NCBI GenBank assembly: GCA_903945435.1
Contig: CAJAVM010000008.1
Location: 3,812-67,811, forward strand
From: an uncultured bacterium
GTDB lineage: Bacteria > Patescibacteriota > Patescibacteriia > Patescibacteriales > UBA12465
Length of the DNA: 64,000 nt
Reading direction: 5' to 3'
The position numbers and the translations under genes are program-made. Under the pieces are notes generated by a model. It made no database searches. It saw nothing but the letters and a program-made list of their open reading frames with translations, and was not told the DNA's origin. How positions within the stretch are numbered: position 1 is the stretch's first letter; each line of letters opens with the position of its first letter. Positions 10,769 through 39,481 of this stretch are shown here, one piece after another.

Positions 10769-10815
10769 ACAATTAATTTTTTTAGTATTCACCAATTATA
10801 GAAAGGAAAAAAACC

Positions 10816-11973: not shown

Positions 11974-12016
11974 TTATGCGTAAATAATTACGATTAAATA
12001 ATTATGAGACAAAAAC

Positions 12017-12046
12017 AAAAAAGGCTTCAGAAATGAAGTCTTTTTG
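12017..12046. terminator. Bidirectional terminator between convergent genes
   Basis: A-run, ggcttca (12023-12029), loop gaaa, tgaagtc (12034-12040, one G-U pair), T-run. Confidence 0.6.
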
Positions 12047-12088
12047 CTATTTAATTTGTTATTTAATTTATTGTGAGAAACTTTTGAA

Positions 12089-12499: not shown

Positions 12500-12639
12500 A
12501 TTTAAAAATAATTTATATATTTATAGATTAGCATATTTTAACGCAGGAGAGCTAGCTTTAAGTGCTATTAAATTCGAAAAAGCAAAAAATTAGACTCTTG
12601 TAATTAAAGGAAATTACTGATAAAATATTTGCATCTAAG

Positions 12640-12666
12640 AAAAGAGGCCCAATTAGCCTCTTTTTG
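12640..12666 (+). terminator. Orphan terminator-like hairpin 30 nt upstream of pflA
   Basis: aaaagaggc / loop ccaatta / gcctctttt followed by further T. No annotated upstream plus-strand gene ends here. Confidence 0.4.
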
Positions 12667-12695
12667 CTGGGTTAAAATGGGTAAAATAAGTTTTT

Positions 12696-20780: not shown

Positions 20781-21653
20781 ATGGATATGAAAAAAAATCT
20801 CCTTATCGGTTTTATCGGCCAGGGTTTTATCGGAAAGAATTATGCCGATGATTTTGAAGCTCGCGGTTTTCAGGTTGTCCGTTATGCTAAAGAACCAGCT
20901 TATGAAATGAGTAAAGAAAAAATTGCCGAGTGCGATTTAGTTTTTATTGCCGTTCCAACCCCAACAACCCCAAGCGGTTTTAATTTCGATATCTTAAAAG
21001 AAGTTATCGGCTTGGTTGGTGTTGGTAAGTCGGCAATTGTAAAATCAACAATTCTCCCCGGAACTTGTGAGACTCTACAAAATTTATATCCCGATAGATT
21101 TGTTTTTCATTCTCCAGAATTCTTAACTGAGAAAACCGCTGCTTATGATGCCGCGCATCCAACGAGAAATATAGTTGGTTATCCGATTGAAAATGATGAG
21201 TATCGTACTAAGGCCCAAGAAATTTTAGATGTTCTTCCGGATTCTCCATTAAATATGATTTGTAGGGCGAAAGAGGCGGAGTTAGTTAAGTATGCGAGTA
21301 ATAGTTTTTTATTTTTGAAAATTGTTTATGCTAATATCTTGTATGATTTAGCAGTTAAGGAGGGAAGTGATTGGGAAAAAATTAGTGCGGGGATGTCGGC
21401 TGACCCAAGGATTGGCGCTTCTCATTTACAGCCAGCGCATGCTTCGGGTATAGACGGAAAAGTCGGACGCGGTGCAGGCGGACATTGTTTTGTAAAAGAT
21501 TTTGCGGCCTTACTCGAGTATGTTAGAAATAGCGGTAGTGATGTTTTGGGGGAGATGTTTCTGTGCGCCGCTGAAGCCAAAAACCTTAGCTTATTAAGAC
21601 AAAGTGGGAAAGATAAAAAAATAATTGAAGAAGTATATGGCAATGTTGATTAA
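20781..21653 (+). CDS. Short UDP-glucose/GDP-mannose dehydrogenase-family protein (N-terminal and central domains only)
   Basis: 290 aa. Rossmann G-F-I-G-Q-G-F-I-G, V-P-T-P, P-E-F-L-T-E and G-G-H-C-F-V-K-D (catalytic Cys motif). The usual C-terminal nucleotide-sugar-binding domain is missing. Confidence 0.65.
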   Translation: MDMKKNLLIGFIGQGFIGKNYADDFEARGFQVVRYAKEPAYEMSKEKIAECDLVFIAVPTPTTPSGFNFDILKEVIGLVGVGKSAIVKSTILPGTCETLQNLYPDRFVFHSPEFLTEKTAAYDAAHPTRNIVGYPIENDEYRTKAQEILDVLPDSPLNMICRAKEAELVKYASNSFLFLKIVYANILYDLAVKEGSDWEKISAGMSADPRIGASHLQPAHASGIDGKVGRGAGGHCFVKDFAALLEYVRNSGSDVLGEMFLCAAEAKNLSLLRQSGKDKKIIEEVYGNVD

Positions 21654-24624: not shown

Positions 24625-25510
24625 TATTGTAATACCAACGTATAACAGAGAAGATGATTTAAGTAAATGCTTAGGCTCTATTTTAACGCAAGAGCTTTTG
24701 CCGGATGAAGTTATTGTAGTGGATGATGGAAGTTTACCGGAAATTTTTGTAAAAAATTGGACCGAAAAATTATTAATTAAAGCAATAAAAATAGTATATT
24801 ATAAAAAAAATCATGATATTGAAACACGAGGGTCATCTGAATCAAGAAATAAGGCCTTAGAATTTATAAGTAATGAAATATTTTTTATTTTTGATGATGA
24901 CGTTATTTTGGAATCTGATTTTTGTAGTAATATAATAAAAATTTGGAAAGACAATGGCGATAATAGCTTAATCGGTGTCGGCGGGATAATTAAAAATAGG
25001 CGTAAAAAAATAAAATTTGAAAAATATTTTTATAAGTTTTTTGGTATAAGCTCTAAATATAGTTGGGACGTTAATGACGTTGGATTTCAGATTTGGGATG
25101 AAGACATATCGGCTCCTAGTATCGGTTACTATGCTCACGGAGGAGTTTGTTCATATAGATTAAATAAAACAAAAGAACTTCGTTTTTCAACTTTTTCAGG
25201 AGGTCGAGCTGCTCTGGAGGATGTAGATTTTTGTTTAAGAGCTAAATTAAGAGATTATCATTTTATAATTCAGCCAAAAGCTCGGCTATTTCATTATCCG
25301 AGCGCTGTTAGCAGAGAGGGGCAATTCCTGACTGGACAGAAGGAAAGCCGTAATAGAAAAATAATATTTAAATCAATAGATAAAAAACCAAACCCTTTTT
25401 TGTGGGTTTGGTTTTATTGGGCTAATTTAGGTTGGATTCTGAGGCAGTTTTTCGTTGGCAATTTTAGAAAGGGTCGCGGAATGATAAATGGTCTCTTTAT
25501 TCATCTCTAA
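24614..25510 (+). CDS. Family 2 glycosyltransferase
   Basis: 298 aa. F-S-I-V-I-P-T-Y-N-R-E-D-D-L, V-V-D-D-G-S and F-D-D-D-V (DxD). Confidence 0.8.
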   Translation: MKFSIVIPTYNREDDLSKCLGSILTQELLPDEVIVVDDGSLPEIFVKNWTEKLLIKAIKIVYYKKNHDIETRGSSESRNKALEFISNEIFFIFDDDVILESDFCSNIIKIWKDNGDNSLIGVGGIIKNRRKKIKFEKYFYKFFGISSKYSWDVNDVGFQIWDEDISAPSIGYYAHGGVCSYRLNKTKELRFSTFSGGRAALEDVDFCLRAKLRDYHFIIQPKARLFHYPSAVSREGQFLTGQKESRNRKIIFKSIDKKPNPFLWVWFYWANLGWILRQFFVGNFRKGRGMINGLFIHL

Positions 25511-27200
25511 AGTCGCTATCTTCAAGTCTATATAGTTTCCAATATTTACTGGTTATAGACATATTTTTTGTTAGTGGGGTTCCTTTGTAATCTTCTAAGG
25601 TCATTGGTTCAACTTTACTTCCTCCAGCTACAGCGTAGTCATACATTGATATTTTTTTATCTCCACAAATATGAATTATTGGCTGTTGTGGCTTTTCTTT
25701 TACAATATCTCTTAACCCCTTAGCTACTCCCTGAGCGAATAAATAGGTTCCATAACGATCAGTAAAAGCTTTTGGATATTCCCAGGGCATGCTAGTGAAA
25801 TTTGTTCTTGTTATTGTGACCATCATCTCTGGGTTGTTGTATGTTTTAGCAATTTCTTCGGCAATATATTTTGTGAGCCCATAATAATGCTTTGGATAAG
25901 GAAGGCTGTCTTCGTTTTCCATAGTTTCGTCATCAGTCCCTGGAAATACGCAGGCGGTATCAAGATAAATAAAGTGTTTTATGCCATATTTTTTTGAAGC
26001 GTCTAATAAACGCCTAATACCGTTTACATTGATATCATAGGCCTGCTCTTTGTCGTTTTCGCAGTTTGGAATTCCAGTCATCGCTGCTAAATGTATAACC
26101 GTGTCTATTTTATGATTATTGAAGTAGCTATCGATACTGTCATTACTAGCCAGGCTCATTTCTTCTCTGTTCGGATACTGAGCCTTTTTAAATATTTTTT
26201 TACAGGCCCTGCCTAGTCTTCCTGATCCGCCGGTTATAAGTATTCTGCTTTCATCAATTTGATTTATTTCCATTAATTTCTTATCATCATATTTTTTTTC
26301 TTTATAATCGATGCCTCTCGAAAAATCTATTATTTCAGCGATGCCTTTTTCTATATTATATTCAAATTTGAATCCCGCATCTATTAATTTTTTACTTGAG
26401 GCAATGTAGTTTCGAGGGTCTTCGATTAGATTAGTTTTTTCAACTTTTGTTCCATATTTTGTTTCAAATGCCTCGGCAATGCCTTTTATTGTTTCATTAT
26501 CTCCAGCTAAATTGAATATCCCGCTGAGGTTATTTTTGTATGCGAATATAAAGGCCCGAGAAATATCTCTGGTGTGGGAGAAGGGGCGATATTGGTTTCC
26601 TCCGAAAACAGAGAGAGTCTCTCCATTGGCTGCTTTTGCTGAAAATAAATTTATCACTAAATCATATCTCATTCTTGGCGATAAGCCGTAGGCAGTTCCT
26701 AATCTAAATACACAATAATCATTTGCTAATTCTCTAACAAATCTTTCTTGTTGATATTTAGTCTGTCCATAGAAATCAATCGGGAAGACTGGTGATTCCT
26801 CAGTTAACGGTTTATCTGGTGAGCAGTTCTCTGATCCGTATAAGGAACAAGTGCTAGCATGAATGATTTTATATTTATGCTTATTTGCTACTTCAATCAA
26901 ATTTCTAGTTCCGACGCAGTTTACTTCCAACGCTTGTCTGGTATTAACTAAACAAGCAGGGTCGCCTACAATAGCAGCTAAATTAACAATAGTATCAGCT
27001 TCTTCTCTCTGGGTAGATAAAATGTGGTCTAATCTTTCTTTATCTAGTAAATCACAATTGATAAATTTAGCATCTTTTTCAGCTAATCCATATAAGTTAT
27101 TATCAATTACTATTGTTTCGATACCTTCTTTTTTGCATTCTTCTTGCAAAACTCTACCAATATACCCGAGTCCCCCAGTGATAATGATTTTTTTGTTCAT
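25497..27200 (-). CDS. Fusion of two extended-SDR nucleotide-sugar enzymes (epimerase/dehydratase-like plus RmlD-like reductase)
   Basis: 567 aa. Domain 1 has I-I-I-T-G-G-L-G-Y-I-G, S-T-C-S-L-Y-G and Y-G-Q-T-K. Domain 2 starts at residue 319 (codon 26246-26244) with R-I-L-I-T-G-G-S-G-R-L-G and carries Y-G-L-T-K. Confidence 0.75.
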   Translation of the reverse strand: MNKKIIITGGLGYIGRVLQEECKKEGIETIVIDNNLYGLAEKDAKFINCDLLDKERLDHILSTQREEADTIVNLAAIVGDPACLVNTRQALEVNCVGTRNLIEVANKHKYKIIHASTCSLYGSENCSPDKPLTEESPVFPIDFYGQTKYQQERFVRELANDYCVFRLGTAYGLSPRMRYDLVINLFSAKAANGETLSVFGGNQYRPFSHTRDISRAFIFAYKNNLSGIFNLAGDNETIKGIAEAFETKYGTKVEKTNLIEDPRNYIASSKKLIDAGFKFEYNIEKGIAEIIDFSRGIDYKEKKYDDKKLMEINQIDESRILITGGSGRLGRACKKIFKKAQYPNREEMSLASNDSIDSYFNNHKIDTVIHLAAMTGIPNCENDKEQAYDINVNGIRRLLDASKKYGIKHFIYLDTACVFPGTDDETMENEDSLPYPKHYYGLTKYIAEEIAKTYNNPEMMVTITRTNFTSMPWEYPKAFTDRYGTYLFAQGVAKGLRDIVKEKPQQPIIHICGDKKISMYDYAVAGGSKVEPMTLEDYKGTPLTKNMSITSKYWKLYRLEDSDFRDE

Positions 27201-27211
27201 ATTAAATTAAA

Positions 27212-27934
27212 TTAAATAATTTTTTCTATTTTTCTTTTAATAAATTTAAGCGGTTGATAAAAAAGATTAAATTGCACATCAAAGCTTAATTTGCGATGTT
27301 TTAATTTGTCTAATAAGCTAACCTTTTCTGTTAAATAGTTTTTGCTGTCTTTTGTGAGTAAATAAACAGCGATATTGGAAAATTTTTTCAGACCAATAAT
27401 TTCTCCATCACATAAATTTACAAAATTAATAAATTTTTTGTTAGACCAAAAAGTTAGATGTTTTTCGTAACTATTTTGCCAATAGTTTGAGCTATTATCA
27501 CAATCATCTTCTACGCCGGCCTCCGCATCCAGAGGTAACGAGACCAAACAATAGCGGCAATTATTTAATATTTTTTTTAAAACAGTCTCAGTGTCTTTAT
27601 CGGAGAGATGTTCTAAAATATCTCCTAGTATTACTACGTCATATTTTTTTAAAAATACAAAATCACATATGTCAGTATTGTAAACAGATTTATAATATTT
27701 ATTAAGATTAAATAACTTTACATAACGTTCGCAAACCTCCACTGCATCAAAGTTTAAGTTCTTATTAGATAATAACTTAGCGTAAGTGGCCCAACCAGGG
27801 CCAATATCAAGAACAGATTTGATACCTTTTAATTCATTAAACCATTCTATTATTTGGAGTTTGCCTGTTATTGATGATCCTGGCATATTATTATCTATTA
27901 TTAATTTTCCAAATATTTTCTCCGAGTGTGTCAA
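27212..27934 (-). CDS. Class I SAM-dependent methyltransferase
   Basis: V-L-D-I-G-P-G-W-A-T-Y (motif I). An alternative start (M-P-G-S.. at 27886) would remove the 44-nt overlap with the upstream gene. Confidence 0.65.
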   Translation of the reverse strand: MTHSEKIFGKLIIDNNMPGSSITGKLQIIEWFNELKGIKSVLDIGPGWATYAKLLSNKNLNFDAVEVCERYVKLFNLNKYYKSVYNTDICDFVFLKKYDVVILGDILEHLSDKDTETVLKKILNNCRYCLVSLPLDAEAGVEDDCDNSSNYWQNSYEKHLTFWSNKKFINFVNLCDGEIIGLKKFSNIAVYLLTKDSKNYLTEKVSLLDKLKHRKLSFDVQFNLFYQPLKFIKRKIEKII

Positions 27935-28346
27935 AAGGCAATCTTATATCGTCCTCCCTTGATTCATCAATTGTTGAGGTGGAATATGTTATAATCAAGG
28001 AATCTTCGCTTAAGGATACAAAGCCATTATAGAAGCCTGCCGGTACGAACAATATTTTTGGTACCGAGGCAAGGAGGGTGTATTCTTTCCATAAATTATC
28101 TTCCATGCCCATTATAATAAATTTAAAAGCACCTTTAGGGACATAAAATAATTTGCCTTCTTTTTTGTGACCATGAAAAGCTCTCACTACTCCAGGCTGA
28201 GTGTTAGTTATAATGTAGCTTCTTTTAAATATTTCGGAAAAAGGGATGCTAATAAAATCTCCGCGATCATCTCCGAATCTTTTTATTTCTTCAATAATTA
28301 CACCTGGCTGTTCCTCATTAAACTCAAGTTTTTTGTAATTTATCAT
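27891..28346 (-). CDS. Cupin-fold nucleotide-sugar epimerase/ketoisomerase (RmlC/FdtA/WxcM-like)
   Basis: 151 aa. F-G-D-D-R-G-D-F...R-A-F-H-G-H-K pattern and cluster context. ATGA overlap with the wecB stop at 28343-28346. Confidence 0.6.
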   Translation of the reverse strand: MINYKKLEFNEEQPGVIIEEIKRFGDDRGDFISIPFSEIFKRSYIITNTQPGVVRAFHGHKKEGKLFYVPKGAFKFIIMGMEDNLWKEYTLLASVPKILFVPAGFYNGFVSLSEDSLIITYSTSTIDESREDDIRLPFDTLGENIWKINNR

Positions 28347-29413
28347 ATTTTTCTTGCTAAAATTTTAACTATTTTTTCAGATACAATTTCTTGATATTCC
28401 GTTGGAGAATCGCCCATGCTTAATTTTTCCGCTAATTTATTTGCTTGAAGTATATCGCTTGTTTCGATTCCGCTCAGTATCATAGAATTATTTTCTAGAA
28501 GCTCAGGTCTTTCGGTTGAGGCTCTCATTAGTACAACCGGAACTTTTAATATACTACATTCTTCAGGTACAGTTCCGCTATCACTTAAAACTGTTTTCGC
28601 ATTCTTCATTAAGGCGAGAAAATCTTTAAAGCCAAAAGGTTTATTGTTTATAACATTTTTTTCTAGCTTAATGTTGAAAGCTTTTAGCATTGATTCTAGT
28701 TTTGGATGTACACTTAAAATTATTTTTGTTTTTTTAGATAGCTGGTTAAGAGCAGTAGTTATCTTTTGTAAAGATTCTTTGTTTGTTATGTTTTCTGTTC
28801 GATGCAGGGTTACTAAAATGTACCCTTTGCTTCTTACTTTATATTGCCCCAGAATCTTTTTCTCGTCAATATTACCAATATATTGAGAAATAACTTCACC
28901 GATAGGGTTTCCTATAACGATTATTTTATTTGGTTTATAACCTTCTAATAGGAGTTGTTCTCGGCTTCTTTGGGTGTAGGGAAGTAAGTATTCGCTGCAT
29001 GAATCAATCATTCTACGGTTAACCTCCTCAGGGACCATGTCGTTATAGCATCTGTTACCAGCCTCTAAATGAAGAACAGGGACGTGAAGTTGCTTAGCCA
29101 CATAAGCAGATAGGGCTGAATTCACATCTCCTAATATTAAGATTATTTGTGGTTTTTCTTTCAGTATTATTTTACTAATTTCTTGCATCATATAACCGAT
29201 AAATTCGAACCCAACAAATTTTTCTTTTAAGTTGAGTTGATAATCGGGGAGTCGCAAACTTAAGTCTTTAAAGAATTTATCCCTTAGATTTGTATCAAAA
29301 TTCTGGCCAGTGTGCACTAGTATGTGTTTATAAAATTTATCAACCTTTTTTATTATTTCTGAAAGCCTGATTATGTCTGGTCTAGTGCCCATGATAGTCA
29401 TTACTTTTTTCAT
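28343..29413 (-). CDS. wecB: UDP-N-acetylglucosamine 2-epimerase (non-hydrolysing type)
   Basis: 356 aa. M-G-T-R-P-D-I-I-R-L, H-L-E-A-G-N-R and D-S-G-T-V-P-E-E. Confidence 0.85.
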   Translation of the reverse strand: MKKVMTIMGTRPDIIRLSEIIKKVDKFYKHILVHTGQNFDTNLRDKFFKDLSLRLPDYQLNLKEKFVGFEFIGYMMQEISKIILKEKPQIILILGDVNSALSAYVAKQLHVPVLHLEAGNRCYNDMVPEEVNRRMIDSCSEYLLPYTQRSREQLLLEGYKPNKIIVIGNPIGEVISQYIGNIDEKKILGQYKVRSKGYILVTLHRTENITNKESLQKITTALNQLSKKTKIILSVHPKLESMLKAFNIKLEKNVINNKPFGFKDFLALMKNAKTVLSDSGTVPEECSILKVPVVLMRASTERPELLENNSMILSGIETSDILQANKLAEKLSMGDSPTEYQEIVSEKIVKILARKI

Positions 29414-29417
29414 AGCT

Positions 29418-30554
29418 TTATAAATTATTGATTATATTTTGTAGTTTTATTGAATTATCTAAAGCGTTATGGTTTTTGTAGAAAGTTTTTTTAGCGTTAA
29501 CGACCAATTTTGTGGAATATTCTTCATTACTAGTCAATTTTTTAATAGCCGATAGTAATAGCTCTTGATCCTCCGCATCAACCACTTCGGCAAAATTATA
29601 TTCTTTTCCATATTTAGCTATAAAGGAATATTCAGGTGCATGTATTAAGATTGGTCTGCCGGAGATTAAATAATCGGTTAATTTACCAGGGCTAGCAGTT
29701 TTTATTATATCAGGAGCCTCAGTATTCCAAGAAAGAGGAAGAAATAAAATATCTGCCTCACTTTGAATTTTTGGCATTGTATCTGGTTCAGAATACAGAA
29801 AACGTATTTTTTTGCTATTTTCAGATGCTGTAATTATTTCATCTGGTACTTTAGGACAATATATATCTAAATTAATGTTTGTATTACTCGGTGATTTTAT
29901 TAGGTTCATTAAATTAATTATACTATTTTTTTGTGGCCAATAGATGTTTCCAGTAAAAACTATTTTAATATTTTTATTGTTAATTTTTTTTTCTTCTATT
30001 TTTGCATAGTTATCTGAAAAAACGGAATTGTAAATTATTTCAAACTTATCCAATCTCCTGTACAGTTTTTGATAATAATCTTTTGTTGCCTCATTAGTAA
30101 TTATTATTTTTTTTGCACCTTTAAAAAATATTGGCTCAAAGAAGTTTATAGCTTTATTTTTAATAGCAAAAATATTTCCTCTCCATAGATCAAATAAAAA
30201 AATACAATATGATTTTTGGGTTATTTTCGCAAGTATAAATGTTATAAAGAAAGAAAATCCACCATCAGAAATAGCAATAATATTGTCTATATTGTCGTTT
30301 TTTATTATTTTTAATCCAAGTTTAATTGCCTGGTATATTTTTTGTAATTTATTTTTATTATTTTTTAAAAAATAATATTTACACCCTAAATTTTTTCCGC
30401 CGCGGTTTTTGTCGTTTAAGTTATTTTTATTTGTTAGTATACAATACTCATCACTATTAATATTAATAAATAGATTATATAAGTTTTGCGCGCCACCAAC
30501 TTGCGGAGGAGCCCAAGATGAGATAATTAAAATTTTTTTATTTAGATTGAGCAT
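29418..30554 (-). CDS. GT-B glycosyltransferase (group 1-like)
   Basis: 378 aa with a very AT-rich gene. The C-terminal half has a GT-B-like pattern (..L-F-L-P-L-S..P-G-K-L-T-D-Y-L-I-S-G-R-P-I-L-I). Confidence 0.6.
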   Translation of the reverse strand: MLNLNKKILIISSWAPPQVGGAQNLYNLFININSDEYCILTNKNNLNDKNRGGKNLGCKYYFLKNNKNKLQKIYQAIKLGLKIIKNDNIDNIIAISDGGFSFFITFILAKITQKSYCIFLFDLWRGNIFAIKNKAINFFEPIFFKGAKKIIITNEATKDYYQKLYRRLDKFEIIYNSVFSDNYAKIEEKKINNKNIKIVFTGNIYWPQKNSIINLMNLIKSPSNTNINLDIYCPKVPDEIITASENSKKIRFLYSEPDTMPKIQSEADILFLPLSWNTEAPDIIKTASPGKLTDYLISGRPILIHAPEYSFIAKYGKEYNFAEVVDAEDQELLLSAIKKLTSNEEYSTKLVVNAKKTFYKNHNALDNSIKLQNIINNL

Positions 30555-33216
30555 GTCTGATTAGTTTGTAGACTTTTTTAGTTATTTCGAATAAGCCTAG
30601 TTTCTTTAAGATAATAATAATTAGTCTTTTTGTATAGATACTAACATTTTCAGCAATTATCCTATTTATAATGATATCATGTATTATAAATATAATTTTG
30701 TTGTTAATTTTCTTATCAGACTCAACTTTCTTAGTGTCAAATTTTTTTGAATCTATTTCCAGGCTTACCTTTTGAAGCAGGCGCTTCCATTTATCCATAG
30801 ACGCCTCAACGGTTACTCCATATTTTATTAATGTTTCCCTGGGATAAAATATTTTTTCTGAAATTTCTTTGATGCCAATTTCTAAATCATCTCCGAAGTA
30901 GCCAATTTTATTTAATTCATCTTCAGATATATCACCGAATATTCCAGTTTTATGCATTACGATTGGTATATTGCACAGGCCAGCTTCTATTGCGGCTAGG
31001 CATTGAGTTTCGATTGGCGATCCTAATATAAAGAAGTCAGCACAATTTAAAAGTTCGGACAGTAGTAGCTGGTTTATTTGATTAAAAACAATAACGTCAT
31101 TTCTCTCATATTTTTCTTGTTTTTTTGTTACTAAAATCCAGAATATTTCTTTATGGCATTCTATTATTTTTTTTATTTCGCTCCACCCCTTAACTTCCGA
31201 AAAATCTCCAACAAAAATGCCAATCTTTTTATTTGTCTTTAATAAATTTTTTTCTTTTAAATATTCTTTATTTTTTTGAGGATAAAACAAGTTACTATCT
31301 ACTCCAACAGGAATAATTTCGCAATCGTATTCGCTATAGGATGCAGCTGTATTGATGGAGTTAGTAACAATTTTATCTGAATTCTTGAGGTTAATTTCTT
31401 GTTGTATGCTTTTTTTCCCCATGGCTCTTAAATCATCTTGCAAAAAAGCAATTGTGTATATTTCATCTGAAATTTTTTCTATAAAACTCGCATTTTGTAT
31501 AATTATTTTAGTATTCTTTTCTTTAAGGATATTTTGACAATCCTTTTTAAATTTCTTCTGTCTAGAGTGCAGCGCTTTAAAGTCGAGCGGATATGAGCCA
31601 AGTATATTTTCCAGTATAAAATTCCAGAAAACTTTTTCGCCCATTATTCCTCCCGTTAAATCATTTATAACGGCGATGCTGGTGCTATCTTCTTTTTTAT
31701 TTTCATTTTTACTATCCATTTCTCCGCACTGAAAATGATATACAACAGACTGAAAAGAAGTTTTATGTTTTATTCCTCTTAAGGCTAATTTATCCATTAG
31801 TATTTTATCCCCAGATATTTGTGGCTCCCCTAATCTTGCTATTTTTGGGCTGTGTATATTGCTGCCAATCTTAGCATTCCCCTCTGGATATCCTCCCACA
31901 CCGATGAAATCCTTCTTTTTTATTAGTAATGGCATAAATAATCCGCCTTCATTTATAGCATCTCTTTTAATTTTATTTTGATATAACTGGAAATCTTGTT
32001 CTTTATAATTATCAATTTCTGTGCCAAAATTTTTTTTAATTCCATATTTTCCTGGAGTTAATTTTCCAGATTCTACCAATCTGGAAGCTATACAATTTTT
32101 GCCATCGTATTTATCTATTAGATTTTCAGACCAATTATTACTAAAGGCCATGTCTGAGTTAATAAATATAATAAAATCTCCCTTAGCTTGTTCGGCGGCA
32201 TAATTCCATGCTCTGTAAACGTTATTGATGTACCATTCTTTTTTATGTTCCTCTGTATTATTAAAAATATAATGCGGAAGATGATTTTCTGTTAAATATT
32301 TTATAACTTCATCGTTAGCATCGTTTGCTACAAAATAAAATTCCTTGTCAGATAGGTCTGTGTATTTTAGTACTTGCTCATACACAAATTTTAGCCAGTC
32401 AACGCTTTTATAAATTAAACAAGCTATCGAATATTTAGGCCTGGTAATTTTTTCTCTGTAATTATAAATATAATGAATGGAATCAGCTAGTGCTAGTTTA
32501 TTTGGTTTTTTTTCGTCATTTATGTATAGCTCGTTTGGTATATATTCTTTATCAACCTTTTCTGTTTCAAGTCTATCTTCGCTTATAATTCTGTCTAGCA
32601 TAACATAGCCTCGTTGCCCATGTTTTTTGTAAGTTAAATATTTATAAGCTATATTTTTTTCATCGTAGAAACCATAGTGGATAATTGACACTTTTTCTGT
32701 TTTTAGCACTTCATCTATGCCATTAGGGGCAAGAGATTGATGGAGGCCTGGTTTGTTTTTATAAGATAAATCTTTTTTTACTTTCCAAATTTTTGTAAAC
32801 CAACCTTCGTCGTAAAGGCTGTCTGTTCGTTTCCATGTAGAGCTTCTCCACAAATTTATTTCTTTCATGCTTACACCATCGTATTTATTTTTGGCACATT
32901 CCTCGCATAATGCTATTAGTTGATCTTTTGTGCAACTCAACAATTCGTCAGCATCTATACATACTATAAAATCAGCTTTTTCTTCTAGAGCAGCACTTAA
33001 TAGTAAGGATTTATGTTTAACTTCCTCTGAGAAATTATTATTACCGCCCCTTATTACTTTATCTGCGTTATTTAGAGAATATTCATAGCTACCATCAGTA
33101 CTGCAATCATCATAAATAATAATTTTATCTACCAACGGTTTTATATATTTAAAAAAGCGTTCAATATTTCCTTTTTCCATCTCATTATATATTTGGCATA
33201 TTCCAATTATTTTCAT
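30538..33216 (-). CDS. Three-domain glycosyltransferase (GT2 + GT2-like + GT-B)
   Basis: The ORF extends to 33291, but M-K-I-I-G-I-C.. at 33216 forms an ATGA overlap with the upstream stop, giving ~892 aa. Domain 1 has Y-D-D-C-S-T-D-G-S and I-D-A-D-E. Domain 2 has Y-S-I-A-C-L-I-Y-K..F-I-N-S-D-M. Domain 3 has E-T-Q-C-L-A-A-I-E-A-G (E-x7-E). Confidence 0.7.
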   Translation of the reverse strand: MKIIGICQIYNEMEKGNIERFFKYIKPLVDKIIIYDDCSTDGSYEYSLNNADKVIRGGNNNFSEEVKHKSLLLSAALEEKADFIVCIDADELLSCTKDQLIALCEECAKNKYDGVSMKEINLWRSSTWKRTDSLYDEGWFTKIWKVKKDLSYKNKPGLHQSLAPNGIDEVLKTEKVSIIHYGFYDEKNIAYKYLTYKKHGQRGYVMLDRIISEDRLETEKVDKEYIPNELYINDEKKPNKLALADSIHYIYNYREKITRPKYSIACLIYKSVDWLKFVYEQVLKYTDLSDKEFYFVANDANDEVIKYLTENHLPHYIFNNTEEHKKEWYINNVYRAWNYAAEQAKGDFIIFINSDMAFSNNWSENLIDKYDGKNCIASRLVESGKLTPGKYGIKKNFGTEIDNYKEQDFQLYQNKIKRDAINEGGLFMPLLIKKKDFIGVGGYPEGNAKIGSNIHSPKIARLGEPQISGDKILMDKLALRGIKHKTSFQSVVYHFQCGEMDSKNENKKEDSTSIAVINDLTGGIMGEKVFWNFILENILGSYPLDFKALHSRQKKFKKDCQNILKEKNTKIIIQNASFIEKISDEIYTIAFLQDDLRAMGKKSIQQEINLKNSDKIVTNSINTAASYSEYDCEIIPVGVDSNLFYPQKNKEYLKEKNLLKTNKKIGIFVGDFSEVKGWSEIKKIIECHKEIFWILVTKKQEKYERNDVIVFNQINQLLLSELLNCADFFILGSPIETQCLAAIEAGLCNIPIVMHKTGIFGDISEDELNKIGYFGDDLEIGIKEISEKIFYPRETLIKYGVTVEASMDKWKRLLQKVSLEIDSKKFDTKKVESDKKINNKIIFIIHDIIINRIIAENVSIYTKRLIIIILKKLGLFEITKKVYKLIRHAQSK

Positions 33217-34010
33217 ATTTTTAAACCTTTTAAAGTTTTTATTGAATATCTTAATACTTTTATTATTACCTTCGTGATTAGTCCGTACCACTTCCCAAAA
33301 TAATAATCCTGGGCTTCGTAATAATATTTTTTTCTTTCACTATTTAAACTAAGACTTTTCCCGCCAAGATGGGTTATGTTTGTTTTTAAATTGACGACGG
33401 TCTCATATCTCTCCTCCTTAACTCGCTTACAAATATCAACGTCTTCAAAGTAGAGAAAGAAATGGTCATCCCAGCCACCAACTTTTTTAAATAATTCTCT
33501 TCTTATCATTAACGCGCAACCACTTACCCAATCGGTTTTTAATATCTCTGCTTCAGTAGGGATTTTTTGTTCTTTTTTAGTTACCTGAGTTATGAGTCTC
33601 CAGAAAGTAGGGAATCGACCAAAGGCATTTTTTTGATATTCGTTATTTTCTAGTTTTAGACGTGGAGATATTATTCCTATCTTCTCATTCTGTTTAAATA
33701 AACTCAAGCATTCTGATAGAAAATCCTCGGTAGCTATCGTATCGCTATTTAGGAATAATAAATAATCTCCGGTTGCAAGAGCGGCTCCTTGATTATTAGC
33801 CCCCGCAAATCCTAGATTTTTCTTGTTAACGATAATCTGAATTTTATCACCAAACTCGCCCCTTAGCATCTCAACGCTTCCATCTTCCGAATGATTATCT
33901 ATAACGATTATCTCCCGTTCCTCCGGTCTTGGCAAGGTAAAAAGGCTCTTTAAGCAGGCGATAGTAAGCTCTGGGGTTTTGTAGTTAATGATTATTGCCG
34001 AAAATGTCAT
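33213..34010 (-). CDS. Family 2 glycosyltransferase
   Basis: 265 aa. F-S-A-I-I-I-N-Y-K-T, V-I-D-N-H-S-E-D-G-S and L-N-S-D-T. Confidence 0.8.
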   Translation of the reverse strand: MTFSAIIINYKTPELTIACLKSLFTLPRPEEREIIVIDNHSEDGSVEMLRGEFGDKIQIIVNKKNLGFAGANNQGAALATGDYLLFLNSDTIATEDFLSECLSLFKQNEKIGIISPRLKLENNEYQKNAFGRFPTFWRLITQVTKKEQKIPTEAEILKTDWVSGCALMIRRELFKKVGGWDDHFFLYFEDVDICKRVKEERYETVVNLKTNITHLGGKSLSLNSERKKYYYEAQDYYFGKWYGLITKVIIKVLRYSIKTLKGLKI

Positions 34011-34021
34011 TTTATTACGTT

Positions 34022-34903
34022 TTATTTTTTAAAATAAAGTAAGATAATTTTCACTAGCTCCTTATACCGAACAATATTTTTAATCTTTACCTGAAAACTA
34101 AAATTTTTAGGAAGAAAGGCGCGGTTATGAATAATGATTTTCTGGTAATAATCTTTCCAAAGGTTATCGCGATAGAAAAAATGTTTTATTTTATTTTTTC
34201 GTCCCCATGATTCATTCTCGCCTCGATTTAAAACTATTTCTTCGGCTATGACTCCGGCACTAAATTCCATATTAGTATAAAAGAAAAGAGACGGAAAGGG
34301 AAACATATCTAATTTATCATTAAATTTCTCAAAGATATAAAAATTTTTATCAAAAATCTCTTTTTTTATAATCCAATTAGAACAAAGAGTTGTATAATAG
34401 TCGATGCTCCCTGGAAACTTTTGATTTAAAATTTGAAAAAAATCTTTTTTATTAGTTGCGACTACATTCTCTTTAACTTTCAATAGATTTTTATATTGTA
34501 TAGGACTGTTATCGCTAAAGCCAATTAAATTACATAGCACTAAATCAGTTTTATGTTTTTTTATAAAGTCTATTACGACTTCTAAAGAATTATTAGCTTG
34601 AATATCATCATCAGAAAATACCCAAATATACTCACCATCGGCCAGCGAGGCAACTTTTATGATTCCTGGTATCAATCCTCGTTTTTCACTATCACAAATA
34701 TATTTTACATTACTAAATCTACTGGTAAATGTTTGAGCAATCTCTTCTGTATTATCGGCGCTTTGGTTATCTAGTATAGTAATGTTAACGCTATTTTTTA
34801 TTTCTAAATTTGAAAATTGCGCAGTTAGACTCGCTAAACATTCTTTTAAAAAACGCGCACGGTTAAAAGTTGGTATACAAATGCTAATTAGAGGTCTATC
34901 CAT
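34022..34903 (-). CDS. Family 2 glycosyltransferase
   Basis: 293 aa. I-S-I-C-I-P-T-F-N-R-A-R-F-L, L-D-N-Q-S-A-D-N-T and F-S-D-D-D. Confidence 0.8.
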   Translation of the reverse strand: MDRPLISICIPTFNRARFLKECLASLTAQFSNLEIKNSVNITILDNQSADNTEEIAQTFTSRFSNVKYICDSEKRGLIPGIIKVASLADGEYIWVFSDDDIQANNSLEVVIDFIKKHKTDLVLCNLIGFSDNSPIQYKNLLKVKENVVATNKKDFFQILNQKFPGSIDYYTTLCSNWIIKKEIFDKNFYIFEKFNDKLDMFPFPSLFFYTNMEFSAGVIAEEIVLNRGENESWGRKNKIKHFFYRDNLWKDYYQKIIIHNRAFLPKNFSFQVKIKNIVRYKELVKIILLYFKK

Positions 34904-34909
34904 AGCTTT

Positions 34910-35821
34910 CTAATCAAGATTATTTATAATTTTTTTTATCATCTGAGAAAAATTTACGCTAGCTTTCCATCCTGTTATCGCCTTTAATTTTTTCGCATCG
35001 CCTAGAAGTACGGCCTTTCTCTCGTTTATAATTTTTTTATTTTCTTTAATGTATTTTTTATAATTAAGTCCTAAAGTTTTAAACGTTATTTTGATAAAAT
35101 CTAAAACAGTATGTAATTTTCCGGTAGCGATTATAAAATCGTCAGCCTGTTTATTATTTAGTATCAACTGCATTGCCTTAACGTAATCAGGCGCATATCC
35201 CCAATCAACTTTCGCGCTCAAATCGCCAACTATCAACTTATCTTGCTTGCCGCTTTTAATATTAATTGCTCCTTTAATAATTTTCATCGAAATGAAATTA
35301 TCGGCGCGGTATTTGGACTCGTGATTATATAAAATTCCTACTGAAGCAAAGATATTATATTTTTCTCGGTATAATTTACAAAGTAAGGCACCATTCATTT
35401 TTGTTATCCCGTAAGCGCTATTGGGATTATAGGGAGTATTTTCATTTTGAATTTTTGTTTTTGAGTTTCCGAAAATTAACGAAGAACTCGCATAAAATAT
35501 TTTCGTTTTTGGAGAAAAAAGACGAATGCCTTCAAGAAAATTTAGTAAAGCTAAAACATTAATTTGATAACTTTGATATAAATCATTGTAAGCATTATCT
35601 TGTTTATCCTGAGAAGAAAAGTGAAAGGCTGCTAAATAATAAATTTCTTCTGGCTTATTCTTTTTGATTAATGTAAAGACAGCTTGTCTGTCTTGAATGT
35701 CTATTCCGTTTTTATCTACACCAATAACTTTATAGTTTAAACCAGTGAGCAATTGTGTTAACAATTTCCCGTCCTGTCCTTGAGAACCAATAATTAAAGC
35801 AGTTTTATTTTTAGCCTTCAT
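34910..35821 (-). CDS. Gmd-paralogous short SDR, probable GDP-4-keto-6-deoxyhexose 4-reductase (Rmd-like)
   Basis: 303 aa, colinear with the gmd product two genes upstream ([25 protein letters not shown]). It has A-S-S-S-L-I-F-G where Gmd has A-S-T-S-E-L-F-G, so the catalytic Glu is absent. Confidence 0.55.
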   Translation of the reverse strand: MKAKNKTALIIGSQGQDGKLLTQLLTGLNYKVIGVDKNGIDIQDRQAVFTLIKKNKPEEIYYLAAFHFSSQDKQDNAYNDLYQSYQINVLALLNFLEGIRLFSPKTKIFYASSSLIFGNSKTKIQNENTPYNPNSAYGITKMNGALLCKLYREKYNIFASVGILYNHESKYRADNFISMKIIKGAINIKSGKQDKLIVGDLSAKVDWGYAPDYVKAMQLILNNKQADDFIIATGKLHTVLDFIKITFKTLGLNYKKYIKENKKIINERKAVLLGDAKKLKAITGWKASVNFSQMIKKIINNLD

Positions 35822-35836
35822 ATCCCATATATTATA

Positions 35837-37096
35837 TTAGATAATTTCTATTTTAGGTAAAGGAAAAATTAATTTTCCTCCTCCTGCTAAAAAATTTTGT
35901 TCTCGCTTGATAATTCCATCTTTAAAATGCCAAGGTAATACTAAAAAATAATCGGGATTCATTTTTTTTGCTTCATCTTCGGAAATAATAGAAATAGCAG
36001 TTCCAGGAGTACAATGACCAAATTTATCTTCGTTAACGTCAGCAATGTAAGGAATATCTTTAGCGGTTAGGCCGCAGTATTGTAAAATTACATTACCCTT
36101 AGTCGAAGCACCGTAACCAAATATTTTTTTATTTTCTTGTTGAGAATGTTTAACAAATTCTAATAATTCGTTGCGATGTTTTTCGGTATCTTTTTTAAAT
36201 ATTTCGTATATTTCTAAACCGTCAAATCCATCATCACGCTCTGACTTTAAAATACTTTCAATTTTTTCGGTTGCTTCTTCAAAATGAGAATTTTTCTTGG
36301 CAAAAGTTAAGGCTAAACTTGCCCCATTAGTTTTATTAAGTTCGATATCGATTATTTTTAAATTTGCTCTATCAGCCATCCATTTAAATTGTTTGAGGGC
36401 ATAAAATTCTGAATGTTCATGACAGATTGTGTCGTATGAAGTATTGCTTATCATATCCGGCATGTAGCTTTGTTCGGTAATCCAGATTCCTTCATTATCC
36501 ATAACGCTCTCAATTTCCTGCATAATAAAAAGCGGATGCGGTAAATCATAAAACATGGCGATGGAAGTAATAACTTTCGCTTTTTTATCGCCACGTATTT
36601 CTTTAACGATATTTTTAGAAAAGAAATTCGGCGCGCTTTCTATGTATGCTGGATAATATTTGTTGAATTTTTTTGAAGTCGGGTCTATTCCTAGTAAATC
36701 AAGTTCATGATTTTTATAGCTCGATAAAAGAGTTCCGTCGTTGCTAGCAATATCAATAACTAGATCTCCGTTTACTAAGTCTATTCTATTTTCTATTTTT
36801 TTAACTACTTCACCTAAATGATTAATCATTGATTGATTTAAGCCTGACCTGTATCCATAATTATCGCCGTATAATTTTTCCATTTCATAATTATGTCGCA
36901 ACTGAACTAGTCCGCAGGCTTCATCTGGATTTTCACTATTTTTACTAAAACACTTTACCATTTCCAAGGGCCCCGATTCGACGGTTTCATTTATTTTAGG
37001 GAAAATACCAGTTAAAGCTTGGTCGCCTAAATTTAAAATAGAAACCAGATTTTTGTTACCACAAATTCGACACTCTTTTATTTCTTCGTATAACAT
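35837..37096 (-). CDS. NDP-hexose C-methyltransferase (TylCIII-like, zinc-ribbon N-terminus)
   Basis: 419 aa. N-terminal C-R-I-C-G-N-K-N-L zinc-ribbon motif, a central SAM-MT core (V-I-D-I-A-S-N-D-G) and a C-terminal C-methyltransferase-type domain. Confidence 0.7.
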   Translation of the reverse strand: MLYEEIKECRICGNKNLVSILNLGDQALTGIFPKINETVESGPLEMVKCFSKNSENPDEACGLVQLRHNYEMEKLYGDNYGYRSGLNQSMINHLGEVVKKIENRIDLVNGDLVIDIASNDGTLLSSYKNHELDLLGIDPTSKKFNKYYPAYIESAPNFFSKNIVKEIRGDKKAKVITSIAMFYDLPHPLFIMQEIESVMDNEGIWITEQSYMPDMISNTSYDTICHEHSEFYALKQFKWMADRANLKIIDIELNKTNGASLALTFAKKNSHFEEATEKIESILKSERDDGFDGLEIYEIFKKDTEKHRNELLEFVKHSQQENKKIFGYGASTKGNVILQYCGLTAKDIPYIADVNEDKFGHCTPGTAISIISEDEAKKMNPDYFLVLPWHFKDGIIKREQNFLAGGGKLIFPLPKIEII

Positions 37097-37099
37097 ATT

Positions 37100-38122
37100 T
37101 TAATTTAGATCTTCTTTTAAATCGTGTTCCATCATTATTTTAATTAGTTCTTTGAAGCCAACTTTTGGTTTCCAGTTTAGTTTGTTGTGAGCTTTAGAGC
37201 TATCGCCGATTAGTAAATCAACTTCGGTCGGTCTAAAATATTTTGGGTCGATTTCGATTACAATCTTTCCAGTTTTTTTATCGATTCCTTTTTCTTCTAA
37301 ATCTTTACCTTCCCAAATTATTTCATATCCAGCAAGCCTAAATGCTTCTTCGCAAAATTCTCTAATACTGTGAGTTTTTCCAGTTGCAATAACATAATCA
37401 TCAGGCTTATCTTGTTGGAGCATGAGCCACATCGCCTCAACATAATCAGGTGCATAGCCCCAATCACGTTTAGCGTCTAGATTTCCTAGCGTAATTTTCT
37501 CTTGCTTGCCATTTTTAATATTAACAATGCCTTTGGTAATTTTTCTGGTTACAAAAATTTGGCCTCGTCTTTCCGATTCGTGATTAAAGAGTATTCCGTT
37601 ACAGGCAAACAGACTATAGGCTTCGCGATAATTTTTTACTGTCCAAAAAGAAAATAATTTGGCAATGCCATATGGAGATCTGGGATAGAAAGGCGTATTT
37701 TCTGTTTGTGGGGTTTCTTGGACCTTACCAAATAATTCGGAAGTAGAAGCTTGATAAAATTTAGTTTTAATTCCCGTGCTTTTAATGGCGTCTAATAATC
37801 TTAAAGTTCCCAGTCCGTCAACTTCGGCCGTATATTCTGGAAGTTGAAAAGAAATATGAACATGAGACTGTGCGCCTAAATTATATATTTCATCCGGTTG
37901 AATTTGTTCAAGTAGTCTGTTCAAGTTACTCGAATCTATTAAATCACCGTAATGAAGATGAAAATTTAAATTTTTGTTGTTTATTAAATGATCTATGCGT
38001 TCAGTATTAAAAAGAGAAGCGGCTCTTCTTAGTCCGTGAACTTCATAGCCCTTACTTAAAAGTAGCTCTGCTAAATATGAACCATCCTGTCCCGTTATTC
38101 CAGTGATTAGTGCTTTTTTCAT
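37100..38122 (-). CDS. gmd: GDP-mannose 4,6-dehydratase
   Basis: 340 aa. [27 protein letters not shown] and N-H-E-S-E-R-R-G. Confidence 0.9.
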
Positions 38123-38161: not shown

Positions 38162-39481
38162 TTATCTCCCCCCACGACTTAAAATAGTCGCGATAGTTTT
38201 TAGAATAATAGTCGCGTCTAAAAATAGGGAACGGTTCTTAATATAAAATAAATCGTTTTGTAATTTCTTTAAAGTATCTTCTTGAGTTGGAGAATGATAT
38301 TCTCCGGAAACTTGGTCCCAACCGGAAATCCCTGGCTTTACAATTAACCTCGTATTATAAAAAGGAATCGCGTTCTCTAATTCTTTTGCAAATTCTGGTC
38401 TTTCCGGACGAGGTCCGATAAAACTCATCTCACCTTTAATAATATTTATCATTTGTGGAATTTCATCAATTCTGGTTTTTCTTAAAAAATTTCCGAACCT
38501 TGTAATGCGCTTATCGTTCTCTAAAGTAATCCCCCTATCATTTCCTTCCTCTTTCATTGTTCTGAATTTGATGATAGTGAATGTTTTCCCTTGATGGCCG
38601 AGACGAGCCTGTTTAATAAAGACTGGCCCTTTACTTTCTAATTTAATTATTATCGCAACCAAGGGCCAAAAAATTATTGAAATAGCTAAAGTAGCTAAAG
38701 CGCCAACAACATCACAAACCCTTTTAAAGAAATTAAAAGAATTTTTTTGATTCTCGCGTAAATTTTCTAAAAACCAAGTTGCGCTGATTGCTTCAACCGG
38801 AATCTTGCCTTTCAAGAGTTCATAGAAATCTGGATAACTGAAAACGCTAATTCTATTTTGTAATAAGCTCAAAAGATTATTAGCTGAGCCCGAAGAAGAG
38901 AAGTCGTCGCAAACAACAATCACTTTTATTTTTCCGTTTTCTACCTGAGTTTTTAAATCTGAAAATTCCGCCTCACTATTAATTATTAATTCAGTTTGAT
39001 AACCAGCTCCGGGATTTTTCTTTATTTCTTCAGCAATAGTTAAGCCTTTTTGGTTGGAACCAATAATCGCTAGTCCAGTTTTAGGAACGGCATGGCTAAT
39101 TGTTTGGTGAAGATAGCGCCAGGCATAAAAAATAACGACAAAAAAAGCGATAAAGAGCGCGAGATTGGTTCTCGGGGTTACACTTGAGGTTATATTAATA
39201 TAGAAGTAGATAATTGAGAGCAAACTTGCCATCACGGTCGTGCTCATTACTCCTCGAAAAAAACGACGGCCCTTAACGCGAAGATTTAAATCGTATAAGC
39301 CGCTAACATAGATAGTTATTAGCCAGATTACAAAAATAAAAGAAAAGGGGCCGATATGGCTTAAAAGTTGGCTATTGAACTCTATTTTTGGATATCTAAC
39401 CGAAAGGACCATCGATAAGGCTAAAAACAGAGATGTGAAATCTCCTATAAAAAGGATAACTTTTTTGAGGCGGCTATTCAT
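38162..39481 (-). CDS. Polyprenyl-phosphate glycosyl-1-phosphate transferase (WbaP/bacterial sugar transferase family), initiating enzyme
   Basis: 439 aa with N-terminal TM segments and a C-terminal sugar-transferase domain (K-R-V-C-D-V-V..F-R-T-M..D-E-I-P-Q..G-P-R-P-E-R-P-E-F). Confidence 0.85.
   Translation of the reverse strand: MNSRLKKVILFIGDFTSLFLALSMVLSVRYPKIEFNSQLLSHIGPFSFIFVIWLITIYVSGLYDLNLRVKGRRFFRGVMSTTVMASLLSIIYFYINITSSVTPRTNLALFIAFFVVIFYAWRYLHQTISHAVPKTGLAIIGSNQKGLTIAEEIKKNPGAGYQTELIINSEAEFSDLKTQVENGKIKVIVVCDDFSSSGSANNLLSLLQNRISVFSYPDFYELLKGKIPVEAISATWFLENLRENQKNSFNFFKRVCDVVGALATLAISIIFWPLVAIIIKLESKGPVFIKQARLGHQGKTFTIIKFRTMKEEGNDRGITLENDKRITRFGNFLRKTRIDEIPQMINIIKGEMSFIGPRPERPEFAKELENAIPFYNTRLIVKPGISGWDQVSGEYHSPTQEDTLKKLQNDLFYIKNRSLFLDATIILKTIATILSRGGR

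Follow-up and report, generated by a model that had tools for sequence, protein, structure and literature searches.

A 64,000-nucleotide stretch of DNA from an uncultured member of the Patescibacteria (contig CAJAVM010000008.1, positions 3,812 to 67,811; here called the window) carries three adjacent minus-strand genes, at 34910-38122, that probably encode a route to a methyl-branched deoxysugar. The genes encode Gmd (a 4,6-dehydratase of guanosine diphosphate [GDP]-mannose), a nucleoside diphosphate (NDP)-hexose C-methyltransferase, and a second Gmd-like protein, a short-chain dehydrogenase/reductase (SDR) that lacks the glutamate used for dehydration and that we call the Glu-less paralog. 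Judging from these sequences, we think it likely that the operon converts GDP-mannose to a GDP-3-C-methyl-6-deoxyhexose, most likely GDP-3-C-methyl-D-rhamnose (GDP-D-evalose) or its 4-epimer, and that family 2 glycosyltransferases (GT2) add this sugar to a lipid-linked surface glycan. An earlier sequence-only reading had pointed to the same trio, and its coordinates and quoted motifs proved exact. The chemistry itself is expected; what is new is the clade of Glu-less, predicted reductases, its fusions to the C-methyltransferase, and its systematic misannotation.

In the proposed pathway, Gmd would oxidize C4 of GDP-mannose and dehydrate C5/C6 to give GDP-4-keto-6-deoxy-D-mannose. The Glu-His pair of the C-methyltransferase would then take the C3 proton beside the keto group, and the enolate would attack the methyl group of S-adenosylmethionine (SAM). 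Finally, the paralog, with its Rossmann motif and Ser-Tyr-Lys retained and its glutamate and RR loop lost, would reduce the 4-keto group with NAD(P)H, and the downstream GT2 enzymes would attach the resulting GDP-sugar to the lipid-linked glycan. The degree of confidence depends on the step. The Gmd step is strongly supported, the methylation step is inferred from family membership and context, and the paralog is a predicted NAD(P)H-dependent 4-ketoreductase of a GDP-4-keto sugar.

The first gene encodes a canonical Gmd, as the sequence-only reading had it. The protein scores 563.7 bits against TIGR01472, for which the equivalog cutoff is 415, and matches PF16363 at 3.3e-152. When compared with the catalytic features listed in PMC3584063, it keeps STSELFG, YGIAK, and NHES, and its RR loop (GxxRR) is intact and reads GLRRAAS, so the catalytic Thr/Ser, Glu, Tyr, and Lys are all present. 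The dehydratase glutamate is the C5 acid/base, and the RR loop has been proposed to touch the adjacent monomer, with its bound cofactor, across the tetramer interface (PMC3584063). Bifunctional Gmds also reduce the 4-keto product to D-rhamnose. This Gmd is the only clear 4,6-dehydratase within the window.

The second gene had been described as a TylCIII-like C-methyltransferase with an N-terminal CRICG zinc ribbon, and this description stands. All three domains of the family score above their curated cutoffs: an N-terminal four-Cys zinc domain containing CRICG (PF08421, 43.8 bits; cutoff, 31.3), a class I SAM domain (PF13489, 34 bits), and a C-terminal C-methyltransferase domain (PF08484, 172.1 bits, 1e-50). 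From end to end, the protein aligns with the only members of the family that have solved structures, namely MtmC (4rv9), the sugar 3-C-methyltransferase 5t64, which is presumably KijD1, and TcaB9. The ten PDB matches are all sugar 3-C-methyltransferases, the best being MtmC, a D-mycarose 3-C-methyltransferase (8.9e-51), and no O- or N-methyltransferase is among them; with the full Zn/SAM/C-terminal architecture also in place, we rejected assignment to either of those classes. Four cysteines (C9, C12, C49, and C61) and the pair E227-H228 are invariant in 40 relatives. The E-H pair lines up with the D-E-H of TcaB9, where we take the Glu-His pair to be catalytic.

Methylation at C5 instead of C3, within an otherwise identical pathway, would give a 5-C-methyl (gem-dimethyl) 6-deoxyhexose. 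Both carbons flank the 4-keto group, NovU-type members of the family methylate C5, and our PDB comparison set held C3 enzymes only, with no C5-specific reference. However, every solved relative is a C3 enzyme, and 3-C-methyl-rhamnose is the only branched surface-glycan sugar known from a genus that carries this C-methyltransferase. Moreover, NovU-type enzymes act after a 3,5-epimerase, whereas the conserved module holds no epimerase. We regard C5 methylation as improbable, and methylation at C3 remains the preferred reading.

The third protein, the Glu-less paralog, is 35.9% identical to the neighboring Gmd and reads SSSLIFG where Gmd has STSELFG, followed by YGITK and NHES. It matches PF16363 (1e-68), but its TIGR01472 score of 202.9 bits falls under the cutoff of 415. 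It had been called colinear with Gmd; this holds apart from a deletion of about 25 amino acids at the RR loop, where the paralog reads GVDKNG, and a shorter C-terminal loop. The claim that it had lost the glutamate and kept YxxxK was borne out on alignment of 163 members of the paralog family with 24 true Gmds. The glutamate position is Leu in the window's paralog; across the family it is occupied by Leu in 92 members, His in 62, and Met in 4, and by Glu in none of the 163. In contrast to this position, conservation reaches 98-100% for Ser113/114, Y137, and K141 (YxxxK) and for NHES, and 100% for GxxGQDG. The RR-loop deletion is family-wide, and the family retains 53 of the 117 positions that are ≥90% conserved in Gmd. 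At the end of strand beta-2, 63% of the members have Asp, then Lys or Arg.

A protein search for the paralog gave thousands of relatives, the best 120 of which are 48-69% identical to it. In several NCBI/JGI records (P0001, P0003, P0070, P0116, and P0241) the paralog, and even a 733-amino acid fusion protein that includes it, is named “GDP-mannose 4,6-dehydratase”. Because the glutamate is missing and the TIGR01472 score is below threshold, this label is very probably wrong. The C-methyltransferase is usually recorded as a “hypothetical protein” or else as a “class I SAM-dependent methyltransferase”.

It would be tempting to view the paralog as a decaying, functionless duplicate of gmd, given that it has lost the catalytic glutamate and about 25 further residues and scores under the Gmd cutoff. 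However, its conservation effectively refutes this view. More than 160 full-length homologs from many phyla have 38 positions in common without exception, among them those of the cofactor and catalytic motifs; the gene keeps a fixed position beside that of the C-methyltransferase and has been fused to it in frame; and the fold is predicted with high confidence (AlphaFold AF2 model from 55 homologs; mean predicted local distance difference test score [pLDDT], 94.4; predicted template modeling score [pTM], 0.91). The paralog thus seems to be a maintained enzyme, but of what kind?

The sequence-only reading had assigned it to the Rmd type, the reductases that form GDP-D-rhamnose, and here our results disagree. 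In a neighbor-joining tree (66 sequences, 308 columns, 100 bootstraps, distance correction with a cap), the paralog clade is monophyletic in 100/100 bootstraps; together with its sister group it joins true Gmd in 100/100, and it groups with classical Rmd in 0/100. A Foldseek search of the PDB with the model returned Gmds at ranks 1-31 (TM score, 0.87-0.91), with the Rmds 2pk3 and 6x3b at ranks 32 and 37. Sequence scores agree: Gmd 1rpn gives 189.7 bits, and the Rmds 2pk3 and 6x3b give 62.8 and 46.8 bits. Classical Rmds read GSSEEYG (2pk3) or VGSSEVYG, with FNHIGPGQ at the site of the NHES of Gmd and the paralog. Since classical Rmds can keep the glutamate, its loss is not an Rmd signature. Based on the tree placement with Gmd and the motif differences from Rmd, the paralog is best described as a neofunctionalized Gmd, not an Rmd-type enzyme.

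The sister of the paralog clade (100/100 bootstraps) is a second Glu-less, Gmd-like group from Lachnospiraceae/Eubacterium metagenome-assembled genome (MAG) loci that also hold the C-methyltransferase. Its genes (L026:4926-5933, L069:3704-4705, and L046:11396-12382) read TAGSCLMFE/D, keep NHES, and retain an insert of RR-loop length. Both groups have lost two further features, Arg219 and the R-P-x-E motif (residues 219 and 297-300 of the window's Gmd). Gmd shows no variation at either, and classical Rmd and an SDR type from Dehalococcoidia also keep both, whereas in the paralog clade Arg219 is replaced by Val/Ile and R-P-x-E by a variable basic patch (V205 and N266-K269 in the window). Their retention in proven GDP-sugar enzymes suggests a part in nucleotide binding.

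The N-terminal half of the paralog also resembles RmlD. As a 102-amino acid PDB query, it aligns end to end with RmlD 4-ketoreductases, with which it shares a short beta-2/beta-3 link, and the protein scores 53.9 bits against the Pfam RmlD_sub_bind domain (cutoff, 27). However, while the N-terminal Rossmann half is RmlD-like, the best overall matches of the paralog, in sequence and in fold, are Gmds, and it scores only 48.7 bits against TIGR01214, the RmlD family, for which the cutoff is 224.

Three lines of reasoning point to a 4-ketoreductase role. The C-methyltransferase would leave the sugar with its 4-keto group, and the paralog is the only candidate within the conserved module to reduce it. 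The paralog keeps what an SDR reductase needs and has lost exactly the two features that are specific to dehydratases. Finally, in the plasmid cluster of Azospirillum oryzae KACC 14407 a classical Rmd occupies the paralog's slot, in what appears to be a non-orthologous displacement. The gene order there is ManC, a C-methyltransferase 47% identical to the window's, a 317-amino acid SDR, and glycosyltransferases; with scores of 162.8 bits against 2pk3 and 156.9 bits against 6x3b, the SDR is a classical Rmd. Rmd-type SDRs also lie alongside the C-methyltransferase in two Betaproteobacteria loci (L041 and L078). In Dehalococcoidia MAGs, the C-methyltransferase adjoins SDRs of about 410 amino acids (L028:1526-2746 and L064:7316-8560) with SSEEYG and NHEGAGRG; they are neither Gmd, Rmd, nor paralog and make up a third kind of partner.

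Gene neighborhoods further tie the paralog to the methylation step. We scanned one genome per species and found a close relative of the C-methyltransferase in at least 599; the locus counts given here refer to the best 80 of these, whose C-methyltransferases are 48-71% identical to the window's. The paralog is coupled to METHYLTRANSFERASE, lying directly downstream of the C-methyltransferase in 45 of the 80 loci, often so closely that the stop and start codons overlap. In 13 loci the gene directly upstream of the C-methyltransferase encodes a true Gmd, and 21 loci have a true Gmd within about 6 kb. The full order of gmd, C-methyltransferase, and paralog recurs in Falkowbacteria, Moranbacteria, Omnitrophota, a Gammaproteobacterium, and Oligoflexia. 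Among the matches listed, the closest relatives of the module are from Falkowbacteria and Parcubacteria, at 66-72% identity.

In nine distinct proteins of 732-733 amino acids, the C-methyltransferase (residues 1-416) is joined in frame, through a linker of about 7 residues, to a full paralog with SSSLIFG, YGLTK, and NHES. The fusion genes are found on contigs of up to 626 kb, and at one such locus the gene pair that follows is the same GT2 pair as in the window. Fusion implies that the two enzymes catalyze consecutive steps, and together with the overlapping genes of relatives it suggests that a labile methylated keto-sugar is handed directly from the C-methyltransferase to the reductase. A different kind of neighbor recurs at 33 paralog-bearing loci that lack a nearby Gmd (L012-L084), where extra class I methyltransferases make up about 15 of the 93 nearest neighbors and FkbM-type enzymes 5. 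These suggest further O-methylation of the branched sugar or of the glycan.

Several observations weigh against the proposed pathway. No Gmd lies within about 6 kb at 32 of the 45 paralog loci, and three have Rml genes nearby. Neither ManC nor ManB was found within the 64-kb window. The RmlC-like cupin and the other SDR domains of the operon could intervene in the pathway. Relatives of the C-methyltransferase also occur in a deoxythymidine diphosphate (dTDP) context: one in Pseudonocardia lies beside rfbA, rfbB, and an NDP-hexose 2,3-dehydratase, and one in Streptomyces angustmyceticus lies beside rfbC, an oxidoreductase, and a polyketide synthase (PKS). The loss of Arg219 and R-P-x-E may mean that the paralog recognizes its nucleotide differently.

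The loci without Gmd raise the question of whether the paralog is a simple NAD(P)H-consuming reductase. Instead, it might oxidize GDP-mannose at C4, hold the hydride while C3 is methylated, and then re-reduce C4, which would give a non-deoxy 3-C-methyl-mannose; or it might be the non-catalytic partner of a bifunctional Gmd. The fusions favor such readings, as do the non-deoxy 3-C-methyl-D-mannose found in the Helicobacter pylori O-antigen (PMC12961483) and the ability of some Gmds to reduce their own 4-keto product. A further case is Phyllobacterium zundukense Tri-48, in which a C-methyltransferase of 49% identity belongs to an O-antigen cluster of the ABC-transporter type. This cluster also encodes a true Gmd, which reads SSSEMYG and has the RR loop, along with manC, manB, and a gene named “rhamnan synthesis F”, but no separate reductase was found within 45 kb of the C-methyltransferase and Gmd. 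In this locus (L093, NZ_CP017941.1), an IS110 transposase immediately follows the C-methyltransferase in the region 9971-13313, and no gene is listed in the intervals 7339-8730 and 11318-13313. This could reflect either disruption of the cluster in the strain or gaps in the gene list of the PLSDB table.

However, gmd is directly upstream and in the same operon in the window and in 13 other genomes, and classical Rmd fills the paralog's slot in Azospirillum. The loss of the RR loop and the RmlD-like N-terminal half would better fit a reductase with an exchangeable cofactor than an enzyme with tightly bound NAD(P)+, and the strictly conserved catalytic triad argues against a non-catalytic partner. 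We consider these alternatives unlikely. A bolder version, in which the paralog and the C-methyltransferase are the two halves of a self-contained oxidize-methylate-reduce machine acting on GDP-mannose, is more speculative still, as is the idea that the losses of the Arg and Glu residues common to GDP-sugar SDRs mark a changed mode of nucleotide binding that needs docking of the C-methyltransferase. Such a machine, if it exists, would account for both the loci without Gmd and the 3-C-methyl-D-mannose of H. pylori. A 4-ketoreductase acting after the C-methyltransferase remains our preferred assignment for the paralog.

The GDP linkage is the weakest link in the pathway. Here the evidence is gene context, because C-methyltransferases 45-48% identical to the window's, from actinomycetes, sit in dTDP clusters; for the same reason, we rejected a GDP-specific clade of C-methyltransferases defined by sequence. 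Markers of the GDP pathway (Gmd, Rmd, ManC, and Fcl) occur in 25 of the 80 loci versus dTDP markers in 4, including one from Streptomyces. ManC is among the immediate neighbors of the C-methyltransferase, whereas the RmlA and RmlC families are not among the 25 most frequent neighbor families. In cultured Alphaproteobacteria, C-methyltransferases of 47-49% identity lie beside manC, manB, and gmd (Phyllobacterium) or manC and rmd (Azospirillum). Altogether, the order of steps proposed by the sequence-only reading, from GDP-mannose through the 4-keto sugar and C-methylation to 4-reduction, has gained from the recurrent gene order, the fusions, and the Rmd displacement, whereas GDP specificity could not be read from the C-methyltransferase sequence.

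Could the C-methyltransferase and paralog act on a dTDP-sugar or another non-GDP sugar, with gmd supplying a sugar of the D-rhamnose or fucose type to the same glycan? The dTDP clusters of close C-methyltransferase relatives would fit, as would the absence from the paralog of the Arg219 and R-P-x-E common to GDP-sugar SDRs, the three paralog loci with Rml genes, and the RmlC-like cupin and RmlD-like domain encoded in the operon. But the 64-kb window lacks RmlA, RmlB, and any further 4,6-dehydratase, so Gmd, whose gene is 3 bp from that of the C-methyltransferase, is its only source of a 4-keto-6-deoxy sugar. The paralog itself descends from Gmd; where a nucleotidyltransferase adjoins the C-methyltransferase in surface-glycan loci, it is ManC; and the marker count of 25 to 4 favors GDP. 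We therefore doubt that the module acts on a non-GDP sugar and retain the GDP route as the preferred reading.

If that route is correct, what is the product? 3-C-Methyl-D-rhamnose (D-evalose, 6-deoxy-3-C-methyl-D-mannose) is described in the O-polysaccharides of Azorhizobium caulinodans HAMBI 216 and Phyllobacterium trifolii (Carbohydr Res 2012, 2015; as cited in PMC7203242 and PMC5644692), and its D-rhamno configuration indicates a GDP route. The O-antigen of Burkholderia andropogonis is built of a 3-C-methyl-rhamnose whose methyl is axial and whose 3-OH is equatorial, with D/L not assigned (PMC7203242). An evalose-type product, as suggested by the sequence-only reading, is thus plausible, given that the sugar is known in O-antigens of Phyllobacterium, a genus in which the C-methyltransferase lies by gmd, manC, and manB. 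This link between cluster and sugar appears to be a correlation at the genus level only. An equatorial 4-OH, as in D-evalose, is favored because the paralog keeps the active-site framework of Gmd and bifunctional Gmds yield D-rhamnose; the 4-epimer, 6-deoxy-3-C-methyl-talose, may be formed instead. The final stereochemistry could also change if the operon's 240-amino acid methyltransferase or its cupin acts on the sugar released by Gmd or on the intermediate after C-methylation.

The closest precedent is virenose (6-deoxy-3-C-methyl-gulose) of Coxiella burnetii, for which a GDP route with Gmd (CBU0689), a TylCIII-like enzyme (CBU0691), and an Fcl-like epimerase/reductase (CBU0688) was proposed in silico in 2012 (PMC3539893); a 2026 review gives no methyltransferase data. 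The two systems share GDP-mannose, Gmd, a TylCIII-like C3-methyltransferase, an SDR reduction, and a surface polysaccharide as the destination. Based on the published description, they differ in the last enzyme, which is of the GDP-fucose synthase type in Coxiella and a Glu-less Gmd-derived SDR in the window. The 64-kb window has no Fcl homolog beyond a weak 38.5-bit match inside a double SDR. A GDP-linked version of this methylation had been called unusual in the sequence-only reading. This is fair with respect to the biochemical literature, in which a full-text search found no characterized GDP-sugar C-methyltransferase, but less so given the at least 599 species genomes with the C-methyltransferase and the GDP route already proposed for Coxiella.

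The dTDP pathways with C-3 methyltransferases (TylC3/EryBIII, MtmC [4rv9], TcaB9 [3ndi], and 5t64) use enzymes with the same three domains, zinc cysteines, and Glu-His as the window's. However, the antibiotic genes have RmlA, RmlB, 2,3-dehydratase, or PKS neighbors, whereas the C-methyltransferase in the window is flanked by Gmd and a Gmd-derived SDR within a glycan operon. Unlike the dTDP antibiotic sugars, the window's sugar would be carried on GDP and would retain its 2-OH and 3-OH. Pathways with Gmd and a classical Rmd (Aneurinibacillus 2pk3 and Pseudomonas aeruginosa 6x3b) share the substrate class and the proposed 4-ketoreduction. Classical Rmd and the paralog both have the extended SDR fold and Ser-Tyr-Lys and both lack the RR loop, but Rmd has NHIGPGQ and keeps Arg219/R-P-x-E, whereas the paralog has NHES and has lost both, and in the window C-methylation would be inserted before reduction. 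The alphaproteobacterial loci of the 3-C-methyl-D-rhamnose type (P. zundukense and A. oryzae) hold the same C-methyltransferase clade in polysaccharide clusters, but they use a classical Rmd or Gmd only rather than the Glu-less paralog, and there gene and sugar are tied by a correlation drawn across separate species or strains. No genetic or enzymological work on these loci was found. In its predicted logic (4,6-dehydratase, C-methyltransferase, and 4-ketoreductase), the window pathway resembles both the dTDP C-3-methyl route and Gmd/Rmd, while by sequence its reductase belongs to neither RmlD nor Rmd.

The trio lies inside a glycan island that spans about 19 kb, from about 20.8 to 39.5 kb (Table 1), with a Wzx-type flippase on the opposite strand; the G+C content of the source bacterium is about 33%. 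The genes are closely packed, with gaps of 3 bp between gmd and the C-methyltransferase gene and 15 bp between the latter and the paralog. The minus-strand glycan operon begins with a glycosyl-phosphotransferase gene, 39 bp upstream of gmd, which has an ortholog (68% identity) in a Falkowbacteria locus (L007). Orthologs of the first GT2 (50-72% identity) lie directly 3' of the module in Patescibacteria and related loci (L001 and L007-L009), and orthologs of the second GT2 (52-60% identity) occur in L001, L007, L008, and L010. We rejected the GT2 pair as a universal companion of the module, because it accompanies the module in close relatives only. Since the pair is confined to these relatives, the first GT2 is a lineage-specific candidate transferase of the branched sugar.

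Table 1. Features of the glycan island, by position in the 64-kb window
Feature	Coordinates	Strand	Description
gmd	37100-38122	minus	340 aa; bona fide Gmd
C-methyltransferase	35837-37096	minus	419 aa; TylC3/TcaB9-type NDP-4-keto-hexose C-methyltransferase
Glu-less Gmd paralog (SDR)	34910-35821	minus	303 aa; predicted 4-ketoreductase of the C-methylated intermediate
First GT2 glycosyltransferase	34022-34903	minus	PF00535, 1.7e-26; 6-bp gap to paralog
Second GT2 glycosyltransferase	33213-34010	minus	PF00535, 2.7e-26; same conserved block
Polyprenyl-phosphate glycosyl-phosphotransferase	38162-39481	minus	PF02397, 4.7e-60; TIGR03025, 337.6 bits (cutoff, 295.55)
Rest of same-strand glycan operon	25497-33291	minus	Triple glycosyltransferase, GT1, WecB, cupin, methyltransferase, double SDR
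Triple glycosyltransferase	30538-33291	minus	917 aa; GT2, GT2, and GT1 in one polypeptide (domain matches)
RmlC/FdtA-like cupin	27891-28346	minus	151 aa; weak matches to dTDP-4-dehydrorhamnose 3,5-epimerases and a 3,4-ketoisomerase
Class I methyltransferase	27212-27934	minus	240 aa; overlaps cupin gene
Double-SDR fusion	25497-27200	minus	567 aa; two SDR domains
Nucleotide-sugar dehydrogenase homolog	20781-21653	plus	290 aa

The rest of the operon hints at a second modified sugar. Residues 1-300 of the double SDR have their best PDB match (129 bits) in 6vo6, deposited as a putative sugar-nucleotide epimerase/dehydratase, which we take to be the GDP-heptose C4-dehydrogenase Cj1427 of Campylobacter jejuni; residues 317-465 are RmlD-like. 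With the adjacent cupin, this protein looks like a fused branch that would oxidize, epimerize, and reduce the second sugar. The triple glycosyltransferase gene, taken from its GTG start, shares 79 bp with the GT2 gene upstream of it; the true start may therefore be further downstream. The nucleotide-sugar dehydrogenase homolog, which may be a truncated gene or a pseudogene, has only 290 residues against a profile of about 413 positions and scores under the family cutoff.

To our knowledge, methyl-branched deoxysugars are known almost entirely from the dTDP pathways of actinomycete antibiotics, and we know of no demonstrated biosynthesis for the 3-C-methyl-D-rhamnose of several O-antigens or the virenose of the Q-fever agent. 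The locus and its relatives offer a concrete, testable three-enzyme route to such sugars. A large, multi-phylum clade carries a dehydratase label without the dehydration residue, an annotation error worth correcting, and this clade is probably a case of a dehydratase turned into a reductase. The chemistry of the patescibacterial cell surface is essentially unknown, and the locus offers an initial look at a specialized surface sugar in this group. The cultured carriers, A. oryzae KACC 14407 and P. zundukense Tri-48, make the pathway experimentally accessible.

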